Shown piece by piece: positions 8,993 to 41,040 of a stretch of DNA of 64,000 bases. This DNA comes from Mobula birostris. Taxonomy: Eukaryota. The notes below the pieces were generated by a model. That model was not told where the DNA came from. It saw only the letters and a list, made by a program, of their open reading frames with translations, and searched no databases. The number at the start of each line of letters is the position of its first letter. The stretch's first letter is position 1. Both the position numbers and the translations under genes were made by a program. Where the stretch lies: NCBI RefSeq assembly GCF_030028105.1, contig NC_092382.1, forward strand, positions 31,971,792 to 32,035,791. Reading direction: 5' to 3'.

Positions 8993-10237
8993 AACAGTAA
9001 CTTAACCACGGGACACTTTACAATGACCAATTAATCTTCACGGACTTTGGATAGGGAGATCTACAGATTTATTACACATGACGCCGGACTTCATCTCCGA
9101 ACTCGCAATGCTAACAGCACCTGAGTAAAATAGGGTTGATTGAGGCTTAAGAGCAGAGAGACTATGTTATTTGCTGCTTCGCTTGGAAACACTAAAGCTT
9201 ATTAGGTATTTTCTAATCCCTGGATAGACACTCCTGCCTTCCATCCTCGTATCCCCACCACTCTGTCCAAATGGGTTTGTGCCTCTGGGACACTAATGGA
9301 AGCTGAATACGAGCAGACTGACACAATATTCAGTGGGCGAATACGTATCCCTTGCTCACAGCGAGCTCCGTGACGCTAAGGGTGAAATTAATGGAATTAT
9401 TCCCACTTGGCCGCTTGTGCCGCCGAACCGGCCTCACGCCAAGTGAATAACGGAGCTATGCTGAGGGTTGAGAGCGAAACACTACGATATTTCATGTTTC
9501 TGAGCGTACCAAGTGGTCAGAAAACTATCGGCCCATGATGGGGGTCAGGACGGTATAGAAATTGTATCACACAGCAACGTTGAGAGGGAATATGTTGGTG
9601 GCAGTGTGGAGGTGGCAATTACGGGATGTAAGGTCTGGGTTGAGCTGAGAAAACTAAGCTGCTTTGATACTAACGAGTCAAAACCTTCAGTGATATCTTC
9701 ATCGTGAGGATGTGAAACGCAGAGAGAATCCTACGGAGACATGGGGAACAATTATACAGAAACAAGGAAAGACATTCTGAACGATGGCTTTTTCCTCGAT
9801 GGTTGTCCATCCTCTGTGTCAATTCACCTGCCAACTATCCTCTTCCGTTCACCAGTGACGTCATCTGAGGAAACAACACACCATTTATGTTGACTACGTC
9901 AGCAACCCGGAAGTGCTGCTGCTGGTGAGGAGAATTACGAGGTGACGATTTTCGAATCTGTGCTAAAACATCGTGACAATGCAACCTTGAAAACAACTAG
10001 TATATTTCATATAGATACAGGCCCAGAAAATTTGTTCCTTTCAATATCAATAAAACGCTGTATGATACCGCCTAACTCGAATCTTGCGTTGTTACGTGTC
10101 TCGAAACTGCTAATCACAGTGTAGTATATACATGGACACAACCATCGCACTGCATAACTCACAGACCTGAAATTAGTAGATACGTTTCCTTTACAAGTGA
10201 CACTGTGTATCGTCAGCCCAATATTCCATTCACATAC

Positions 10238-10281
10238 CTCCTCAGATCACTGTAAACAGATCGGTCCTGCAGCACAAGTCC
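10238..10281 (-). pseudogene. Gene A former cytoplasmic exon 4 (GLVLQDRSVYSDLR), splice acceptor mutated
   Basis: Aligns to 48411-48454; acceptor reads AACTG instead of AACAG; lies downstream of the premature stop. Confidence 0.75.
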
Positions 10282-10933
10282 CAGTTAATGTGAGGAAATC
10301 AGCATGATTAGCAGCATTTTGTTATTAAAAGCATTTTGTGATAGAAGAGAACAGCAATAATATTGAAGAGTATTTGCGCTTATTTAATAAATTCTGTCTG
10401 AAAGTAACACGGAATAGTCAGACCATGATGAAAAGAGGATCAGAGACAGACAGTCATGATCCCCAAGCGAAAGGGAGCATAATCCCTTGTCATTCGCTTC
10501 TCTTCCTTCAAAAGATCAGAGTGATATTTGCAACTTTCCAGTCCTCAGAAACAATTCCACAGCAATCTGTAGCTTGGAATATCAGTAATTATCCCTCTAC
10601 TACCTCTTCAGTGGCCCATTTCAGAATGGTGTGGTGCAGTTAATCTTGTCCATTTAGTCCAGGTGATTCATCTACCTTCAGCCCTTCCAGCTTGCCTTGC
10701 ATCTTCTCCTTATTAGCCACTCCCGTGTCCTGACACTGTCAGACTGATAGTTTGCTCCACAGCAAAGATTGACACATAATACTTCATGAATGGATCCGCC
10801 ATGTCTTTGTCCCCAACTGCTGCCTCTTCGATTTCATTTCCGCTATGGAATGTCTCACCTCATCGTCTGTCTCTTACTGTGTAAAGTGGAAACAATTACT
10901 TCAAGAAGGCATTGACGCAAATGTAGTCCTTAC

Positions 10934-10975
10934 CATATAAGTGGAATTTCAATCATCTGCATTGTTCCTTGTGCC
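10934..10975 (-). CDS. CEACAM-like gene A, cytoplasmic exon 3 with premature TGA (GTRNNADD*NSTYM)
   Basis: 42 nt, CAG/GTAAG; TGA at 10951-10949 where gene B has GGA. Confidence 0.8.
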
Positions 10976-12165
10976 CTGGAACGAGAACATGAAGATTTCT
11001 ATTGAAGCGTTTAACCAAGTGCACAACAATTGTATTCTGACTCTGCACATAAAAAAGGGAGTATCAATTTTCACATTCACTGCTGATTGGAGCATATTGC
11101 ATCATTCGCCGTTCGACAGACTGCGTGTTTCGGATTCAGTGTCAGAAAAGTACATATTTTCTCTGACACCAGGAACGCTTCCGGACAGCATTAGATGATT
11201 TGTAAGCATTCAGCAATAAGGGTAGCATGATGAATGTTATTTGACGAGGAGCTCGCCTTCAGAACCAAACATCTTGAGAGATTATTCCTGATCAGAATTT
11301 GCACGTCACAGAGAGGGGATATGGACTTGCGTCCTCAGGATGCTGACCGTATTTGCTATTTCTCTAAACGTTCACATAGATCATCGCTGATCACAGTCCG
11401 GCAGGTGCAGACCTAACCACCGCTTCCACTTGTGTCTTTCCCGCTTTGACCGGACATTTAAAGAGGATCCTTCATGAAATATATTCCACTCAGAGTAAGA
11501 GCTGTCTTTTTTGCATTGTACAACAATTATGTATTCTGCAGAAACAGCAAATAACTCGGGTGAAGAAGTTCTGCAGGTGCTGGAAATACGGAACAACGCA
11601 CACAAAATGCCGGAGGAACCCAGCATTTCAGGTAGCATCAATGAAAATTAATAAACATTCGACGTTTTGGGCCGAAAGCCTTCTGCTGGACTGGAAAGGA
11701 AGCAGAAAGGCGCCAGAATTTAAAAAAAAACAATAAGTGGGGGAGAGGAAGGTTGTCTATGTGGAAGGTGAATGGTGGACCTGGAGAGTGGGGAAGGTAA
11801 AGCGCTGAAGGAAAATGAATCCGATTACAGAGGAAACTGGACCATGGTAGAAATCGAAGATGGAGAGTCTCCGGGGAAGTTCATGGACATGTGAAGATAA
11901 GAGATAAGAGTCGAGGGCGAAGAATGGAACAAGAGGGAAGTGAACAAAAACACGGGTAGGAAAAGGTCGATGTTCGTTGCTATCTGGTTTGGGTCTACTT
12001 TGAGGCGTTGTTCCTCAGTTAACTGGAAATGTGAACCAGTGATCTACATAAATGGCCAATCAGTGCCCAAGGGCCCGATGGACGCTACCGATCACATTAC
12101 CGATGTTCTTATCTTTCCTTCGCAAAACAATGACTGAGACCATGAACATAATACAAACATCCAAC

Positions 12166-12230
12166 CTGCTCATTCCTTGGGAAATTTTCATAGTTTTGCG
12201 ATGCGTCCGCAGCGTTTGTATCCAAGGTGC
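12166..12230 (-). CDS. CEACAM-like gene A, cytoplasmic exon 2 (STLDTNAADASQNYENFPRNEQ)
   Basis: 65 nt, CAG/GT, phase 1-0; paralogous to 45961-46025. Confidence 0.8.
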
Positions 12231-12628
12231 CTGTGGGATCAAAACAGATATGTCACAACGGTGAAGAGCAGTAGGGACCGTTGTTAGTACTGCAGACGTC
12301 AATCCGGGCCCCAAACAAAATGCAACCATAGCGTGAGCCACGTCCCATCCAGTTGTCAGAAACACGTAATCTCTTGTACAGAAGACCAGTAACTGAGGGC
12401 CTATATTGATCAATATGAAGGGAAATTAAGTCCACTAAACTACAATTCCATCTCCCCCTGATATTGTAATGTTCAGTTCAAAATTTAAACTTTTTTCACT
12501 GGGATACCAAACGATAGGCAAGATAAAACGACCTCCAGCTTGTGTGCGCTATGAGCTTCCATATTTAAATGCAATGTTTAGATTTCCGTGGGCTCAGTAA
12601 TAGAACAGTTCAAACGGGGTTCACTCAC

Positions 12629-12684
12629 TCTTTCTTCTGGAATTGGTGCTCGTGTCGTGTTTGGATTGCGGTGGATCTTTGATG
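12629..12684 (-). CDS. CEACAM-like gene A, cytoplasmic exon 1 (IKDPPQSKHDTSTNSRRK)
   Basis: 56 nt, AG/GTGAGT, phase 2-1; paralogous to 44925-44980. Confidence 0.8.
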
Positions 12685-14220: not shown

Positions 14221-14341
14221 CCCTCAGTGTTCCTGGTGATCAACCATCCACTGACTACGCCGATCATGGTCACGCCAAGGAAAAATACCACAATGGCCAC
14301 GATTGCGCCAGAGCTGAGGATACATTTGCCATCTGTTTTTT
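14221..14341 (-). CDS. CEACAM-like gene A, transmembrane exon
   Basis: 121-nt phase 1-2 exon EKTDGKCILSSGAIVAIVVFFLGVTMIGVVSGWLITRNTEG; paralogous to 42937-43057. Confidence 0.85.
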
Positions 14342-14717
14342 CTGTTAACACACAAAGAAAATGAATATCTTACATTCCGAGAACACGTCTTTATCAGTGA
14401 CAAATTCATTTTCACAGCAATTTGACTGGGTCAGTTTAGAGTTGTATATTGTCTCACAAGGATTACCCCCCGAATGAAAGCGTTAACATGCGTTGAACGT
14501 TTAATTGGTCTGGGTGTGCAGTCGTTTGAATTTACAAGGATTGTCGGGGGGTGGGGGCGTGGAGGGAACCGCATTGAAACTTTCAACGAATGTTGGAAGG
14601 TCTAGACAGAGTAGATGTGGAAAGTGTGTTTCATGCAGTGGGAGTGTCTCGGATATGGAGGCACAACCTGAGAATAGAGGGGTGTCAATTTAAAATAGTG
14701 ATGCGCGGATATTTCTG

Positions 14718-16597
14718 CATAAGACCATAAAACAAAGGAGCAGAAGTCCGCCATTCGGCCTATCGAGTCTGCTCCGCCATTTTATCATGAGCTAATCCAT
14801 TCTCCCATTTAGTCCCACTCCCCCGCCTTCTCACCCTAACCTTTGATTCCTTGGCTACTCAGATACCTATCAATCTCTGCCTTAAATGTGACTTAGCCTC
14901 CACTGCCACCGTGACAACAAATTCCATAGATTCACCACCCTCTGGCTGAAAGAAACTTCTTCTCATCCCCGTTCTGAATGGGCGCCCTTCAATCCTTAAG
15001 TCGTGGCCTCTCGTACCAAACCCCGCCATCATGGGAAACAGGTTTGCCACATCCACTCTGTCTATGCCGTTCAACATTCGAAATGTTTCTATGAGATCTC
15101 TCCTCATTCTTCTAAACTTCAAGGAATACAGTCCGAGTGCGGATAAACTTTCCTCATATGTTAACTCTCTTATTCCTGAAATCATTCCAGTGAATCTTCT
15201 CTGCACCCTCTCCAACGTCAGCACATCCTTTCTTAAATAAGGAGCCCAAAACTGCCCACAATACTCCAAGTGAGGTCTTACCAGCGCCTCATAGAGCCTC
15301 AAAATCTCATCCCTGCTGCTATACTCTATTCCGCAGGAAATGAATGCCAACATTGCATTCGCCTTCTTGACCACAGACTCAACCTGGAGGTTAATCTTAC
15401 GGGTTTCCTGGCACGAGGACTCCCAAATCCCGTTGCACCTCAGAATTCTGAATTCTCTCCCCATTTAAATAATAGTCTGCCGGTTTATTTCTTCTGCCAA
15501 AGTGCATAATGATACACTTTCCAACATTGTATTTCATTTGTCACTGCTTTGCCCATTCTTCCAAGCTATCCAAGTCTCTCTGCAGACTCTCCGTTTCCTC
15601 AGCACTACCGGCCCCTCCACCCTATCTTTGTAGCATCAGCAAACTTAGCCACAAAGCCATTTATTCATTAATCCAAATCGTTGATGTGCAACGTAAGAAG
15701 AAGCGGCCCCAAGACGGACCCCTGTGCAACACCACTGTTAACCGGCAGCCAACCAAAATAGGATCCCTTCAATCCAAATCTCTGTTTCCTGCCAATCGGC
15801 CAACGCCCTATCCATGTATGTAAATTTCCCGTAATTCCATGGGCTGTTGTCTTGTTAAGCAGCCTCATGTGTGGCACCTTGTCAAAGACAGTCTGAAAAT
15901 CTAAATATACAACATCCACCTCATCTGCCTGGTCTAGTCTGCTGGTAATTTCCTCAAAAAATTATTATAGGTTTGTCAGGAAGGATTTTCCTTTCAGGAA
16001 TCCATGCTGAGTTCTGCCTATCTTGTCATATGCCTCCAGGTGCTCCGTATCCGTAACCTCATCCTTGACAGCAGACTCCAACAACTTCCCAACCACCGAT
16101 GTCAAGCTAACAGGTCTATAATTTCCCTTTTGCTTTCTTGACCCCTTCTTAAATAGCGGAGTGACATTTCCAATCTTTCACTCCTCCGGAACCATGCCAG
16201 AATCTATCGACTTTTGAGCGATCATTGCTAATGCCTTTGCAATCTCCACAGCTACATCCTTCAGAACACGAGGGTGCATTGCATCTGGTCCGGGAGATTT
16301 ATCTACCTTTAGACCATTCAGCTTCCTGAGCACTTTCTCTGCTGTAATTGTGACTACGCACATTTCACTTCCCTGCCACCCTTGAGTGTCCGGTATACTG
16401 CTGATGTCTTCCTCAATGAAGACTGATGCAAAATACTCGTTCAGTTCCTCCGCCATCTCCGTATCTCCCATTACAATTTCTCCAGTATAATTTTCTATCG
16501 GTCCTATATCTACACTCAACTCTCTTTTTCTCTTTATATACCTGATAAAGCTTTTAGTATCCTCTTTCATATTATTTGCTAGCTTCCTTTCATAGTT
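14718..16597 (-). mobile_element. 5'-truncated CR1 LINE in gene A intron 2
   Basis: Identical to 493-2372. Confidence 0.9.
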
Positions 16598-17149
16598 TCA
16601 GATTCCTCGCTTCTGCTGAAAATACCGTGAACATCCCAATAATCTGTATTGTTGACTTCACAAACTTCTATATGGTCAGGCCAAGGCCTTCCACGCTCCG
16701 AGGATAACTTGAACAATCTCCCATTCCAGTAGCATCCTTGTGAATTTTTTCAGCGCCTTTAAGGCTGAATGAAATTCTTCTCAGAATTCTTTCTGCCTAT
16801 TCGAGGAATGATAATGCAATTCCTAACCATAAGCTTCAAGGTGAATTTTATGTCCCATCAAAACATCTAACCCTACAGTAAAATTCGTCATTCGCGTCAT
16901 ATCACCTCAGCGGGAATCTTGATGGCCTAAGCCCGCAAGCGTCGACTCGACCCTGGCTCCTGGAATGCAGTCCCAAAACTTACTAAAGCTAATTGCACCT
17001 CTTTCAGATGTTTGGGGGGACCGGAGCTCCCATTGTCATTCGGACTGACAAAGGGCTGAGGCCCGGAACGTCGACCGTACCTCTTCCTATAGATGCTGCC
17101 TGGCCTGCTGCGTTCCACTAGCATTTTGTGTGTGTCACTCAAAGATGGT

Positions 17150-18536: not shown

Positions 18537-18854
18537 CAATAACACGCAGAAAGATGGTCGCTGAGGTTCGGGAGCCATTAGTTGGAACGATCGTCACACG
18601 GTATTCCCCATTGTCCAACATGTTCACCGACTTCAGCAGAAGCGACCCATTGGAGATGAATACATAAGCCCGCGATGTGTAGGCCTTGTCAACGGTCACG
18701 GTCTGGCCGATCCACTGGGCGATTTTTTTCCCCTTAAAAATCCAGTTTCCACTGATGACATTGCCCGACGGCCGCACTGAAAAGAGCGCATCTCCCCCGA
18801 CGGTGACATTTATCTGGCTGTGCTCAACGAAAATGGTAAACTGCTGAGACTCAC
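18537..18854 (-). CDS. CEACAM-like gene A, exon 2: IgV (N) domain without the canonical disulfide
   Basis: 318-nt phase 1-1 exon, polypyrimidine/CAG acceptor and GTAAGT donor. Reads GESQQFTIFVEHSQINVTVGGDALFSV...SRAYVFISNGSLLLKSVNMLDNGEYRV...LRVI, with NGSLLL and DxGxY motifs and no Cys, as in CEACAM/HEPACAM/CD2-type V domains. Confidence 0.9.
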
Positions 18855-19056
18855 CTGACAGAGAGAAAATCGTATGAGAGAAAAGCGACAGACACGGATA
18901 GAATCGAGAACTGCACGTAACTCAATCTGTACAAATACCAGGGGTATCTACATAGCTCAGTAACGTCGACCCTTATAACCCTGATGTTCATGACTCCAAC
19001 CACCCGCCACTCTGATGATTATCCGACCACTGACTGTTCGAGAGAGTGACCCTCAC

Positions 19057-19108
19057 CCGCCGTTATGCAGAGACAAAGAACGAGCGCTGCGAAGGGCAGT
19101 CCCGACAT
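19057..19108 (-). CDS. CEACAM-like gene A, exon 1 (signal peptide MSGLPFAALVLCLCITAG)
   Basis: ATG at 19108-19106, hydrophobic leader, phase-1 GTGAG donor; same peptide in genes B and C. Confidence 0.85.
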
Positions 19109-19157
19109 CCCGACAGAGAGCAGCGCCGATCTCTGTTACACTCGGAGACTGAGCTGC

Positions 19158-19218
19158 ACTTCCGGGTTTGCGCGGCAGATAATTGGATTCTGACGTCACA
19201 AGCGGCAGCACTGATTGG
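19158..19218 (-). promoter_or_regulatory. Gene A proximal promoter: CCAAT box, CRE (TGACGTCA), ETS (CCGGAAGT)
   Basis: ATTGG 19214-19218, TGACGTCA 19191-19198, ACTTCCGG 19158-19165; same order and spacing in B and C. Confidence 0.6.
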
Positions 19219-20104
19219 ATCAGATATTCTGTACTCTGCTCAAAATCCAGATCAATTGTTGTGTGCTGTTATACAAATATCTGCTGCTGTGTTGAATCCG
19301 ATAATAATCTCAAAGAGAGTTTTTCTCACCCATCGATATGAACGGAAAGTGAGTGAGTAAAGCGAGCGTCGTCCACGCGATCTCGAGAGAGAGGCGCCTG
19401 TCTCTGTTACACTGGGAGAGTGAGCCACATTTCCTGATCTCCATTGAAGAGCTCGGTAGTCCTGATCTGAAAAGCCGGAGCTGATTGGATCGCACAGCGA
19501 GAAGGCGGAGACTGAACGAACATAAAACGCTGTTGGAACAGGAGGCTATTCAGCCCTTGATATTCTCCCATGGTCCTCTATCAGCTCACGTAGCATTTTT
19601 CTGAAAACTATTTTCCTACGAGATTGAGAGACTGGTCGGGTGTTGGTGCCGCATTAATTTTTGAACCGACAAACAACAATACCAAGGAATTGATTGCATC
19701 TTCACGAAGCAGAAACAGGGAGAACACATCAGCCCTCATTCAAGGGTCGACGGTAAGGGTGAGCAGTTTCACGCTCCTTCCAAACGATCTCTGCTTTGCC
19801 TCACATATTTTTGCATTCACAAAGAAAGATCCGTCAGCGGTTGTATTCTACTACGTGATTGAAGAAATTTGGTATTGGTATGTCACTCAAAATCGCGAAC
19901 TACACAAGATGGGAAGCATTCTGACTGGCGCCATTGCCGTCTGGTTAGCAGGCTCCAATGCACAGGATCGGCAAAGATTGTAGAGGGTTGTGTACACAAT
20001 CACATCCATCACGGTACAAACCTCCCCATAACCCAGGACATCTTCAGAAGGTGGTGCCTTAACGATACCAGGCACAGAATTAAGGGCTACCAACGTCCGT
20101 GACA

Positions 20105-27584: not shown

Positions 27585-27990
27585 GGAGATCAGAGGCCAA
27601 TGTGATCTGCAGTGGCGCAGCCGCAGAGTCCCGTGTTCAGTCTCGCTCTCCGCCCTCTCTATGAGTCTCTGGCCGTTCATAAAGGGTTAATCAGGTTGCT
27701 GTGGATCTGATTTCTGCAGCTGCAATCGGCTCCATATTTTGTAGTAAATAAAGTTGGTTCTGAGCAAACTGGTATTGTGTAACAAACACTTCCGGAGCTC
27801 AATTCAACGAGCCCTGAATTGTGAGAAAAAGAATGGAAAAGCACCTCGCGAATGTCAACCTTTGGCGCGCTTAATCCTGTTTTGTCAGATCAGAGACCCT
27901 GTCCCCAGCCTTGTTTTGTACCCAGTGTCCACAACATCTGATGCCGGATGTACACACGGAGACAACAACACAAGGAACCACTCTGCTCCT
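27585..27990 (+). pseudogene. Second relic copy of the terminal exon ending VVNKVGSEQTGIV*
   Basis: Codons 27741-27779, TAA 27780-27782; only synonymous differences from the other copy over these 13 codons. Confidence 0.45.
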
Positions 27991-28249
27991 CGAAACTCCC
28001 GAGCCATTCACAAGGATCTACGCCAGACACTTCTGTCCCGGTTCCCCATCACCTCCGATCCCGCGCCAATTCACCACCCCGACCTTTCGAGCAGTATTCG
28101 TCTCCTCTTTAATTCCCTCCCAGTGACCCCCCTCAATTTCCATTTGAATAGATGATTCATAAAATATGAACATAATTTCCCAAACACAACCGATTCAATC
28201 TTGCAATTCTGTCCCATCCACAAGTAGCAAAGGAGTGGGAAAAAGTAGT

Positions 28250-28425
28250 AGAACTTCACACTTATCTCCCCGGGAATCTTGATTTGATTAGCTTTATCTG
28301 AAGACAGAGATATCCTGTCATTATCATGGATGGGTCTGTTATCCTCTAACCACGTTCTTCCCTGGATCCTGCCCTTGCGTCAAAAATGAATACAGCCCTA
28401 TTTCCACGGTCCTCCATTATTTTAA
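28250..28425 (-). pseudogene. Fragment of a further IgC2 A-type exon
   Basis: RTWLEDNRPIHDNDRISLSSDKA matches RTWFKDNQPI...RIFTSPDKA of genes B/C; frameshifted. Confidence 0.55.
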
Positions 28426-29046
28426 ATGAAGAGTTAAAATTGCTCTGGCAAGTCCGGGACATTATTCGCTGTAGCGTCAAATGAGCATCTCCGAAAATTT
28501 GACTTATACATAAATCCAGCAGTTTGACATAAATCCGAGTGTGATAGAGAAGTTCGTGACCGAAGGTCGAAGGAGATATTAGCTTCAAACTTTCTGCACA
28601 ATCACTCAAAGAGTTGACCTGCATGTACCTGTAACGAGAGCTGTATACCTCATCTCCTTCTACCTTAGGCCACGAACTTATCAATTACCCATGCTGTGGT
28701 CACCTTCTGGAGGTCTAAGATCCGTATGCTCCACGACGGCTGGATTATGTTTGTAAATGTCAGAGGGGACTATGCTGAAAAATAAATGTGCTGGGTTTTC
28801 TAAAATTGACTCTTTCTACATTAGGCCACGAATTTATCAATAACCCCTCGTAAATCCCTTCCGGACCTCGAGTATATCTATAACTCTGCTCCATCTTGCC
28901 TGTCCCTGACGAACAATTTGTTGTTTTTTTTCTCTCTTTGATGACTAAAGTAGACAGAATAGAACAGCGTGAAATTTGCAAAATAAAATTGCTCTGAAGT
29001 TGAACCGGCCGATTGAAGTGTAATATCGACAGAAACTTTTACTTGC

Positions 29047-29314
29047 CCTGTACTGTGATCTTTACAGAAATGCTGTTGTGTTTCCTGGTTATTTTTTTGT
29101 CAGCCTGACAAGTATACTTTCCATTATCAACGTTGTTTTCTAAATCGGTGGTGTCGCTCTGTCCTGTCTGCGCATGATGTGTCCCATTGCGCCATCTATA
29201 GTCAGCACTGGGAATTGACTGGGCGGAATAATTTATTTCAGACTTGGAACGATATCTGTCGCAGGTAGACCCACCTGCGGCACCTTCAACAGAAATCTAG
29301 ACGGTATGTTGTTT
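29047..29314 (-). pseudogene. Decayed CEACAM-like IgC2 B-type exon
   Basis: YSAQSIPSADYRWRNGT...TGQ...DNGKYTCQA...SVKITVQG resembles CEACAM B domains; first Cys to Tyr, in-frame stop near the 5' end, GC donor. Confidence 0.7.
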
Positions 29315-29369
29315 CTGTTATCAGTTATGCCGAATTTAATTTGAAGTAATCAGCTACATGCACACTTAC

Positions 29370-29636
29370 AGTTAACCTGCAGGTAGATTCCTGCGATGTC
29401 GCTGGTATAATCATCGCTAACGGGACATTTGTTCTTTCTTGTTTCAGTTCTGTGAAGGCGGGTTATGTTCAGATTAACTTTTTCTGAAGACAGAGATATT
29501 CTGTCCTTATCCTGGGTGAGTTTGTTCATGTTCTTCTTTGAAATGTTCCCTTGTTTGTCACAAGTGAATTCAACCTTACTGTTGCTTTCCACGTGACTTA
29601 AATTGCTGCTGGTTACACGGTCACGAGACACGGGCT
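29370..29636 (-). pseudogene. Decayed CEACAM-like IgC2 A-type exon
   Basis: ACAG|AG CCC GTG start and T|GTAAG end; EPVS...VEFTC...DRISLS...KC...YLQVN; core Trp and DxGxY lost. Confidence 0.7.
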
Positions 29637-30009
29637 CTGTAAATAGACGTGAAAGAGGAATGGAACTAATCCATTTTACTGCATTCTTGTCATACCAGTT
29701 GGGGCTCTGTAGACCAAATTACGATCGTGACCGACATATGGGTCTTAATGGCAAATGAATTGCAGCTTCAGAACACGAGGGCGCGCGGCTTCAGTTCTGC
29801 TACGTCATGGGGGGGGGGCGAGTGTTACGTTTTTCGATGAACAAAGGCTCTGCTGCTAAGTTAACACATTTCACGTCACATGCAGGTGATCATATACCCG
29901 ATACTGATTCTGATTATGCACTCTACTGCCCTATGTGCGATGCTAAATTGTTTGCACTAGAGGGAGTGTCAAAAACAGAGCGTCATTGTTGTCAAATACA
30001 TGTTCCGCC

Positions 30010-37250: not shown

Positions 37251-38222
37251 CAGAGGCCGGGAGACTAAAATGAACAAGACTGGAAGGCGGGTAAATGCCA
37301 CTAGCTCAGCTAGAATATTTTGCGGGATAAAGGAGTCCTGTCTGACCCTAACAATGCCCTTGCAAAATCAGCTACTGATTTGCTGATGATGCCTGTTGGG
37401 ATCAGAGGCAGAGATGTCGAAATACCAGATCTTATTACAGCTTGCAGACCGTTGTCGTTTTGACAGTAGAAAGCTGATGCAGTTTCCAAAATTGCGCAAC
37501 ATATGTACTGGGCATGTCTTTTTTCTCGGAAGCTGTGAAAACATTGTCAGGAAATGTGCATCTGTCATGCAACGAATTTCAACAGAAGGTTAGTAAGATA
37601 CATCCCGCAGTTTGGCGTGGTTTTGAGTTCGTTTCGTGTTAACAGAAGGTGGCGGAATTCTGGAAGGCTTTGATAGGAGGAGTACTTAACCGACCACGGA
37701 TTCAAAACACTGAGCACCGTCAACTCCAACGCCAGTTTCAGATCACAAGAGGTGTATATGTGAGGCTCCCTTGCTCTTCTGATGTATTTCCGGGTTTCCC
37801 TGTTGGAAACTCTGCAAGCATAAACACCAGTGTGATTGAAAGTCTGGGCAGCGGTGGGGAACTGTTCAATGAACTGAAAAGGGGAAGATATTATATCGAG
37901 CCACAGGATTTACACTTGCGAAAGAAATGGTGACAGTTGACGGCAGATGAATATGAATCAGTTTTGGGATGCGAGACATGCTGAGATATTAAAGTACGTC
38001 TGAATACAATGGATTGGGAGGTTCGTCATGTGTCCAAACATACCTGTATATTCTTCTCACAATTTAACCGCTAATTATCATATTACCTGTCCATTTTTAA
38101 TCCACAGCAAAATCATGAGATTTGTCATTGACTGAGTAGCTCTATAGATTTTATTGACCGCTGAGGTACACAGGAATAAACATTAGATTTTCTGCAGACC
38201 CGGCACCTGATTAGCGCACCAT

Positions 38223-40426: not shown

Positions 40427-40501
40427 GTAAGTACACAGTTAATCAACCGCGTTCATTTGTATCGGATATTACTATACTCGACAGGTATTCTCATTTTAGA
40501 G

Positions 40502-40760
40502 TTGGGCCAGAGAAGCAGAACATTCGACCGGAGAGTCCGGGTGTTTGGAATATTGTGTCAAACCTGACATTAACTTGCTTTGCTCGGTCAGTCCCTTGGG
40601 GTATGTATGCATGGTACAACAGGAACAAGCGCCTGCGGACAGGGCAGGAGCTCACCGTCGCGTCAGTGCGCTCGGTTGACGTTGGTTATTATGGATGTTA
40701 CGTTTTCTAGAGGATTTACCAAGAGGAGTTTTAATCTTACTGTCCAGGTTTATGCACAAG
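40502..40760 (+). pseudogene. Gene B IgC2 B-type exon, frameshifted (pseudoexon or soluble-isoform exon)
   Basis: GPEKQNI...LTLTC...YAW...DVGYYGC, then an extra T gives TAG at 40708-40710; length 259 (3n+1); weak GAG acceptor with a competing TAG 2 nt upstream. Confidence 0.75.
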
Positions 40761-41040
40761 GTGAATGAATGGGTCTCCCTCTAGTGTATACAAAAATACG
40801 ATGGTCTAAGATCCAAGCATTTGCCTTTCACGAACTCCACACTCCTCACTCCGTATCTTCACTCCTGTTTATAAGTGGTTCCTGAGAATAAAAGTATAGT
40901 CATAATAATAATATTTCCTTACCGATGCCAGGAGCGTTGAATGTTGGTTAGTGAATGTAAAATAACCTCCTCAATCACAAGGCAGCAACTATTTTATATT
41001 CACCATTTCCGTCCAGAACTGGTATGTTTTACTCCTGTTT

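Follow-up and report, generated by a model that had tools for sequence, protein, structure and literature searches.

Transmembrane CEACAM genes of the ITAM lineage whose cytoplasmic tail ends early are already known. PMC2110893 describes how cytoplasmic exon 2 of human CEACAM21 finishes in a stop, how dog CEACAM29 has lost the splice site at cytoplasmic exon 3, and how an N-TM cDNA of dog CEACAM24 keeps an unspliced intron between cytoplasmic exons 3 and 4. The locus described here, gene A, lies in a cluster of ~1.1 Mb in the ray Mobula birostris and belongs to the same class; unlike those three genes as that paper portrays them, it is found in a cartilaginous fish, joins a stop to a splice lesion on a mosaic haplotype, and keeps its YxN motif. 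A preprint (PMC13278318) reports single-IgV CEACAM1-like genes in terrapins, having a single N domain together with a transmembrane segment (TM), which have lost their motifs by splice-site mutation and are proposed there to be non-signalling decoys, their function untested. The terrapin genes, as presented in the preprint, come from an ITIM-bearing CEACAM1, with a 96-99% N-exon match, whereas gene A descends from an ITAM gene, and our analysis turned up no inhibitory partner for it. In layout, the intact sisters of gene A resemble the marsupial ITAM-bearing CEACAM1-related genes and CEACAM20, for which PMC2832619 gives four cytoplasmic exons; the sisters differ from that description in an extra fifth exon that contains the stop codon, and gene A also in lacking the ITAM.

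In zebrafish, splice-site lesions lead to exon skipping or to the use of cryptic acceptors, and stops close to the last junction leave transcripts at wild-type levels (PMC5716581); the cases in that account are laboratory single mutations, whereas gene A is a natural haplotype with two lesions. Cartilaginous-fish CEACAM genes are barely described: they were noted from skate ESTs in PMC3628338, which also gives ATP1A3, PAFAH1B3, CNFN, and LIPE as synteny markers of the family, and our literature search, which covered titles and the starts of abstracts with most subscription journals outside its range, found no paper on this ray cluster. What gene A adds is a ray case in which loci with the stop occur both with and without the downstream acceptor. 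Activating-tail loss, known in mammals and turtles, thus also recurs in rays, and the four loci that share the stop, three with the acceptor and one without it, offer a built-in test of the 50-55 nt rule of nonsense-mediated decay (NMD) near its edge, in an elasmobranch. The same set of loci asks whether a splice lesion can stabilise a nonsense allele; if it does not, the case is one of ordinary turnover in an immune-receptor cluster.

Structure and family identity of gene A

Gene A consists of eight exons on the minus strand with a single-IgV transmembrane layout. Positions below are those of the window, i.e., the whole 64,000-nucleotide stretch that was analysed, unless a G000 coordinate is given.

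19057..19108, minus strand: leader exon, 52 nt, ATG at 19108; matches 7/7 compared paralogues exactly; its joint to the IgV exon is spliced in RNA-like runs
18537..18854, minus strand: IgV-like N exon, 318 nt, with neither cysteine nor stop
14221..14341, minus strand: transmembrane exon, 121 nt; N-TM and TM-cyt1 joints present in runs
12629..12684, minus strand: cytoplasmic exon 1 (cyt1), 56 nt; its SKHDTS is the majority state of the cluster and no lesion
12166..12230, minus strand: cytoplasmic exon 2 (cyt2), 65 nt; keeps YENF (YxN, GRB2-type consensus)
10934..10975, minus strand: cytoplasmic exon 3 (cyt3), 42 nt; TGA at 10951-10949 ahead of the first ITAM Tyr; spliced contig with 0 differences in run X6
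10394..10399, minus strand: two upstream AGs, candidate cryptic acceptors that would trigger NMD; use not seen
10373..10444, no strand: putative site of recombination or conversion, where the stop-bearing segment gives way to the CTG-bearing one (shared derived sites end at 10444, differences begin at 10373)
10282..10284, minus strand: dead acceptor CTG of cyt4; matched without a difference by contig 10259-10435 of run X7 (organism B)
10238..10281, minus strand: cytoplasmic exon 4 (cyt4), 44 nt, containing the second half of the ITAM; a cryptic CAG has its end at 10267
9073..9864, minus strand: terminal exon, a single coding base and the normal stop ahead of the 3' UTR; the first AATAAA begins at 9073, predicted exon end; joint 10934-9864 in X6
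1-2442 and 14226-16667, with N run 2443-2455, and G000:C17:32148842 (strand not given): repeat sites that double the gene A tail and the tail of another stop locus

The sequence-only reading had the leader, IgV, TM, and YENF exons and their splice sites intact, and this was borne out: the leader, IgV, TM, cyt1, and cyt2 exons are all open, with GT/AG ends. For PMC11646289, a pseudogene is one whose N exon has a stop or defective splice sites; the N exon of gene A is open and its AG and GT are intact.

The best PDB match of the IgV exon is CEACAM1 (E 5.5e-5), followed by CD2 (1e-3); the Pfam V-set model matches it at E 3e-4, under the curated cut-off. Compared with 40 shark and ray proteins, most of which carry the name CEACAM-like, the gene A IgV is 61-91% identical. 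There are no cysteines in the 105-aa N exon, and the canonical Ig disulphide is typically absent from CEACAM N domains. The intact paralogues of gene A carry YxN in cyt2 and a first ITAM YxxL split by a phase-0 intron; PMC2110893 and PMC2832619 describe both as the layout of ITAM-type CEACAM genes. By its N-domain match, its lack of N-domain cysteines, and the ITAM/YxN layout of its intact paralogues, gene A is a CEACAM-family member of the leader-IgV-TM type.

Three shark and stingray CEACAM-like proteins (P0003, P0004, and P0036), 61-66% identical to gene A in the IgV, have ITIM-like tails and are, from their sequences, candidates for an inhibitory partner lineage. The 5' end of gene A (18855-19708) is likewise mosaic on paralogue comparison: intron 1 is near the loci at 32.79-32.89 Mb (6/202 differences) and far from the relatives of the gene A tail (47/199), and the upstream 600 bp differ by about a quarter from every one of the seven paralogues compared, so the promoter may differ.

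The two lesions, NMD geometry, and transcripts

On re-reading the sequence, we found the TGA, the CTG acceptor, and the cryptic CAG where the sequence-only reading had placed them. Within the 42-nt exon 10975-10934, the TGA occupies codon 9; the first ITAM Tyr is the fourth codon past it, and 15 nt are left to the next junction. The cyt4 acceptor at 10284-10282 reads CTG; it is CAG in all 22 copies besides gene A and its adjacent duplicate. Recomputing the distances from the stop to the last junction (the last exon runs from 9864) likewise returned the earlier values, i.e., 59 nt with cyt4 included, 44 nt with the cryptic CAG, and 15 nt with cyt4 skipped. The stop therefore lies inside the 50-55 nt limit for NMD escape at 15 nt, the skip present in X6, and at 44 nt, the cryptic CAG, use of which was not seen. 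Were the upstream AGs at 10398 or 10394, which the sequence-only reading does not list, used instead, the distance between the stop and the last junction would grow to 175 or 171 nt; the AG at 10398 has a pyrimidine tract (11/14) as rich as those of true acceptors.

The earlier statement that gene A has lost its signalling tyrosines stood in part: the ITAM is cut off, but Tyr196 in YENF is retained, and the tail, although without an ITAM, is not tyrosine-free. The predicted 212-aa product has this one tail Tyr only, with no ITAM and no ITIM, and is not strictly signal-free; YxN in cytoplasmic exon 2 is treated as a GRB2-like motif in PMC2832619. NCBI/UniRef holds a 212-aa protein, P0044, that ends at the stop and is identical to translated gene A, and a 213-aa protein, P0041, which is the gene A product skipping cyt3 and cyt4 and has no ITAM; both are predicted gene models. 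Models from other rays (P0019, P0033, and P0047) also skip cyt4, and no acceptor lesion is known there; skipping may thus not require CTG. Two M. hypostoma models, P0023 and P0045, single-IgV with the gene A type of TM, are without cyt3 and YxN and keep the last Tyr, a possible independent ITAM loss at the level of gene models.

Four sequencing runs under the same organism label, guessed to be RNA, have joints at gene A exon ends; X4 and X6 were taken as RNA solely from such joints, none of the runs being on record as RNA. Contig depths served as allele bookkeeping and are no measure of expression. In X6, the depth of 550.1 at position 10951 is made up of 309.4 for GGA, from a diverged paralogue with 5 differences, and 240.7 for the stop base. 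Three contigs account for the latter: one over cyt2-cyt3 without a difference (129.9), one that skips from cyt3 to the terminal exon, cyt5 (62.6), and one with a cyt3-cyt4 joint (48.2); the stop base on the last two was deduced from the depth sum and not from printed sequence. The contig with the skip cannot be assigned to gene A by phasing. Over 266 nt, a UTR contig from X6 matches gene A without a difference; the other three stop loci have 2 differing sites there, but two ITAM-intact loci fit the contig equally well. Intronic contigs of this run differ from gene A at 3 and 5 sites, exactly as predicted for loci with the stop and CAG, and a contig over the TM carries alleles other than those of gene A at 14296 and 14269. 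No base private to gene A was seen in the RNA-like runs X4 and X6, which were compared closely. The joint 10265-12165 was considered as cryptic-acceptor use; the same depth joins 10238 to 9698, and the joint was read as a diverged paralogue and left uncounted.

The X6 contig of the haplotype with the stop and CAG is unbroken from cyt4 into intron 4 (9837-10282), and thus no fully spliced 59-nt inclusion form of that haplotype is displayed in X6. Its absence fits NMD, as read from the shape of the contig. Spliced contigs from X4 carry GGA only, with no skip, and contigs from the DNA run X1 carry GGA and CAG only; contigs drop minority variants, and the absence of the variants from X1 and X4 contigs was not read as absence. 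In X7, which bears the label of organism B, CTG is carried by a contig of 177 nt (10259-10435) that is identical to gene A, whereas 11/11 paralogues compared differ from it at four or more sites; X7 has no cover at the stop, and the order of the lesions is unreadable from it. Both lesions look real and not artefacts.

The reading we prefer, with confidence a little above even, is that gene A is a single-IgV CEACAM gene whose ITAM is cut off by a stop, whose next exon has lost its acceptor, and which likely makes a 212-residue receptor that keeps YxN, from a cyt4-skipped mRNA that likely escapes NMD. Its mRNA would skip the 44-nt exon, leaving 15 nt between the stop and the last junction, inside the 50-55 nt rule, and the skipped mRNA would derive at least partly from gene A. 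The 212-aa one-domain receptor may then reach the surface and bind what its ITAM-bearing sisters bind. Loss of an ITAM means that Syk-family kinases are not recruited; the receptor would have no Syk-type activation, may bind GRB2, and could dilute or damp the activating sisters or work in adhesion. Its origin would be that of an ITAM-less receptor arising through birth-and-death turnover, as with human CEACAM21 and dog CEACAM29. For the decoy of the sequence-only reading, no inhibitory partner or ligand was identified; the 24 tails found in the part of the cluster that was read are all of the ITAM type.

Cluster copies and loss of the ITAM

A genome search gave 22 matches inside ~1.1 Mb. We read 1.05 of the 1.22 Mb of the cluster, the window included and with 51 kb of N; the 1.05 Mb hold 24 tail copies, all ITAM-type, and a crude double-ITIM scan of the same span returned chance-like, unverified matches only. 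The stop is present in 6 of the 24 and CTG in 2. Six stop loci and two CTG loci were not retained as counts, however, because two copies lie in exact repeats adjoining 13-N runs, one of 14,212 bp with 1 mismatch and the other of 13,161 bp with 0. These are probably false duplications; we take the 13-N runs to be contig-overlap marks, although the Ns of the window could be masking instead. The counts were thus cut to four stop loci, one of which is truncated upstream by a gap, and one CTG locus; CTG is in gene A only, and the other three stop loci keep CAG.

The change of SQYGAI to SKHDTS, which the sequence-only reading had listed among the lesions of gene A, proved not to belong to it. SKHDTS is present in 18 of the 24 copies, 10 of which have a full ITAM, and Tyr occupies that position in 3 of the 24. 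The position is Tyr in 9/10 Hemitrygon tails and His in 5/9 M. hypostoma tails, so the Tyr-to-His polarity is probably correct and the change is old; on this comparison of tails, it predates and is independent of the ITAM loss of gene A. The earlier claim that gene A is not a dead pseudogene is probably right, given the spliced stop-bearing contigs, the exon-skipped form, the intact upstream exons, and the 212-aa database product; that the SQY-to-SKH change is selective for gene A is not supported.

Six of the 12 single-IgV loci are without a full ITAM, through three changes: the stop, the acceptor, and a change of the first ITAM Tyr to His at two single-IgV-type loci (G000:C17:31816629 and 32755382; model P0011). 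The other 10 tails keep both ITAM Tyr codons; Fisher's test of 6/12 vs 0/10 gives p 0.015, but this counts copies rather than events and is not used as proof. No stop or splice lesion was found in the located L, N, TM, cyt1, and cyt2 exons of the 12 single-IgV loci, two of which, beside gaps, are without located L and N. Because cyt3 and cyt4 make up 22% of the truncating target, the chance that both truncating events fall there is 0.049, a post hoc figure in a setting where conversion can purge lesions. Together, these counts weakly suggest relaxed selection on the ITAM with the ectodomain kept. The IgV pN/pS values vs the nearest paralogues (0.042/0.026, from 10 and 2 changes) give no sign of purifying selection and are uninformative in a family under diversifying selection; with so few changes, a comparison of dN/dS upstream vs downstream of the stop was set aside.

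The alternative that survives best, a possibility we hold to be appreciable if well short of probable, is that gene A, a redundant duplicate of recent origin, is at an early stage of neutral decay: an intact promoter would drive its transcription, but its product would be invisible to selection. The cluster does contain fragments and near-identical block repeats, and stops stand in one IgV exon (32186487) and in the second IgC-like exon of gene B; moreover, the lesions are young (~1% divergence), the truncating events number only two, and the RNA-like runs X4 and X6 gave no gene A-private base. However, in the located exons of the 12 single-IgV loci, the 78% of the truncating target that lies upstream of cyt3 has taken no hit, the CTG haplotype is common to organism B, and stop-bearing spliced forms are present. 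An expressed, ITAM-less receptor that likely escapes NMD remains our best reading of gene A.

Mosaic origin and the order of the lesions

Over positions 13900-10400, only 2-3 of 3501 sites separate gene A from the other three stop loci and 43-48 separate it from the GGA loci; over 10399-9164, its distance to the stop loci (17-18/1236) is like that to the GGA loci (14-17/1236). The contrast between the two segments is significant (Fisher p 5e-8 or smaller), and it points to a recent conversion or crossover near 10444-10373 that homogenised the stop-bearing segment, with CTG on an older, separate segment. By these divergences, gene A is a recombinant in which the stop and CTG sit on segments of different history. 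No order is thus shown for the earlier proposal that the second lesion rescues the mRNA. Three histories are compatible: the stop came first, in a common ancestor; CTG came first, and the stop was later tolerated and exported; or independent lesions were joined by recombination. We put the chance that CTG appeared on a gene with the stop at roughly even, and selection is not shown by any of the three histories.

A selected rescue would have the stop arise first and make the gene an NMD target, with CTG, or the recombination that joined the two, then favoured for a stable ITAM-less decoy. The geometry is right for this (59 vs 15 or 44 nt); the stop in four loci and CTG in one fit a stop-first order; gene A groups with the other stop loci at two downstream sites, 10170 and 9279; and the X6 contig with the stop and CAG lacks the fully spliced inclusion form, as NMD predicts. 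We nevertheless think it unlikely. The divergence downstream of 10400 speaks against it, the CTG segment is old and is also found in organism B, which makes CTG-first as plausible, and three stop loci persist with CAG. In addition, models from other rays skip cyt4 with no known acceptor lesion, and 59 nt barely exceeds a 50-55 nt boundary that, according to PMC12668785, is human-derived. We would likewise advance only with considerable doubt one further reading, namely that mobulid single-IgV CEACAM genes repeatedly shed the ITAM and that gene A is a selected recombinant in which a nonsense allele and a splice-dead 3' end make an NMD-proof, GRB2-only receptor; if true, this would be a naturally occurring instance in which one lesion compensates for another with respect to mRNA surveillance. 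Under the preferred reading of an expressed, ITAM-less receptor, the stop and CTG would have been brought together by ordinary duplication and gene conversion, in either order, and NMD escape would be a by-product of tail erosion under relaxed ITAM selection and not a selected repair.

That assembly or sequencing errors lie behind both lesions is very improbable and largely refuted: the probable false duplications and the DNA run X1, which shows neither variant, would allow it, but the stop is in four separate loci and in spliced X6 contigs, and CTG occurs with linked private bases in X7 under another organism label.

Some other features of the region were recorded. In gene B, the second IgC-like exon has the in-frame stop (40480-40790, plus strand), and the 325-aa model of this gene, P0016, appears to omit that exon and keeps a full ITAM. 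Degenerate IgC-like exon remnants at 27900-29750 and 37700-37950, both on the minus strand, recur between genes cluster-wide. More distant IgV matches (75-77%), several with equal scores, are spread over C17 at 2-88 Mb and at C4:1108441, and a cyt4-like piece lies on C9:122051966. Three near-identical blocks of ~91 kb and several of ~46-52 kb occupy G000:C17:32.20-32.45 Mb and 32.75-32.90 Mb and could be either true copy-number variation or the product of haplotype assembly.
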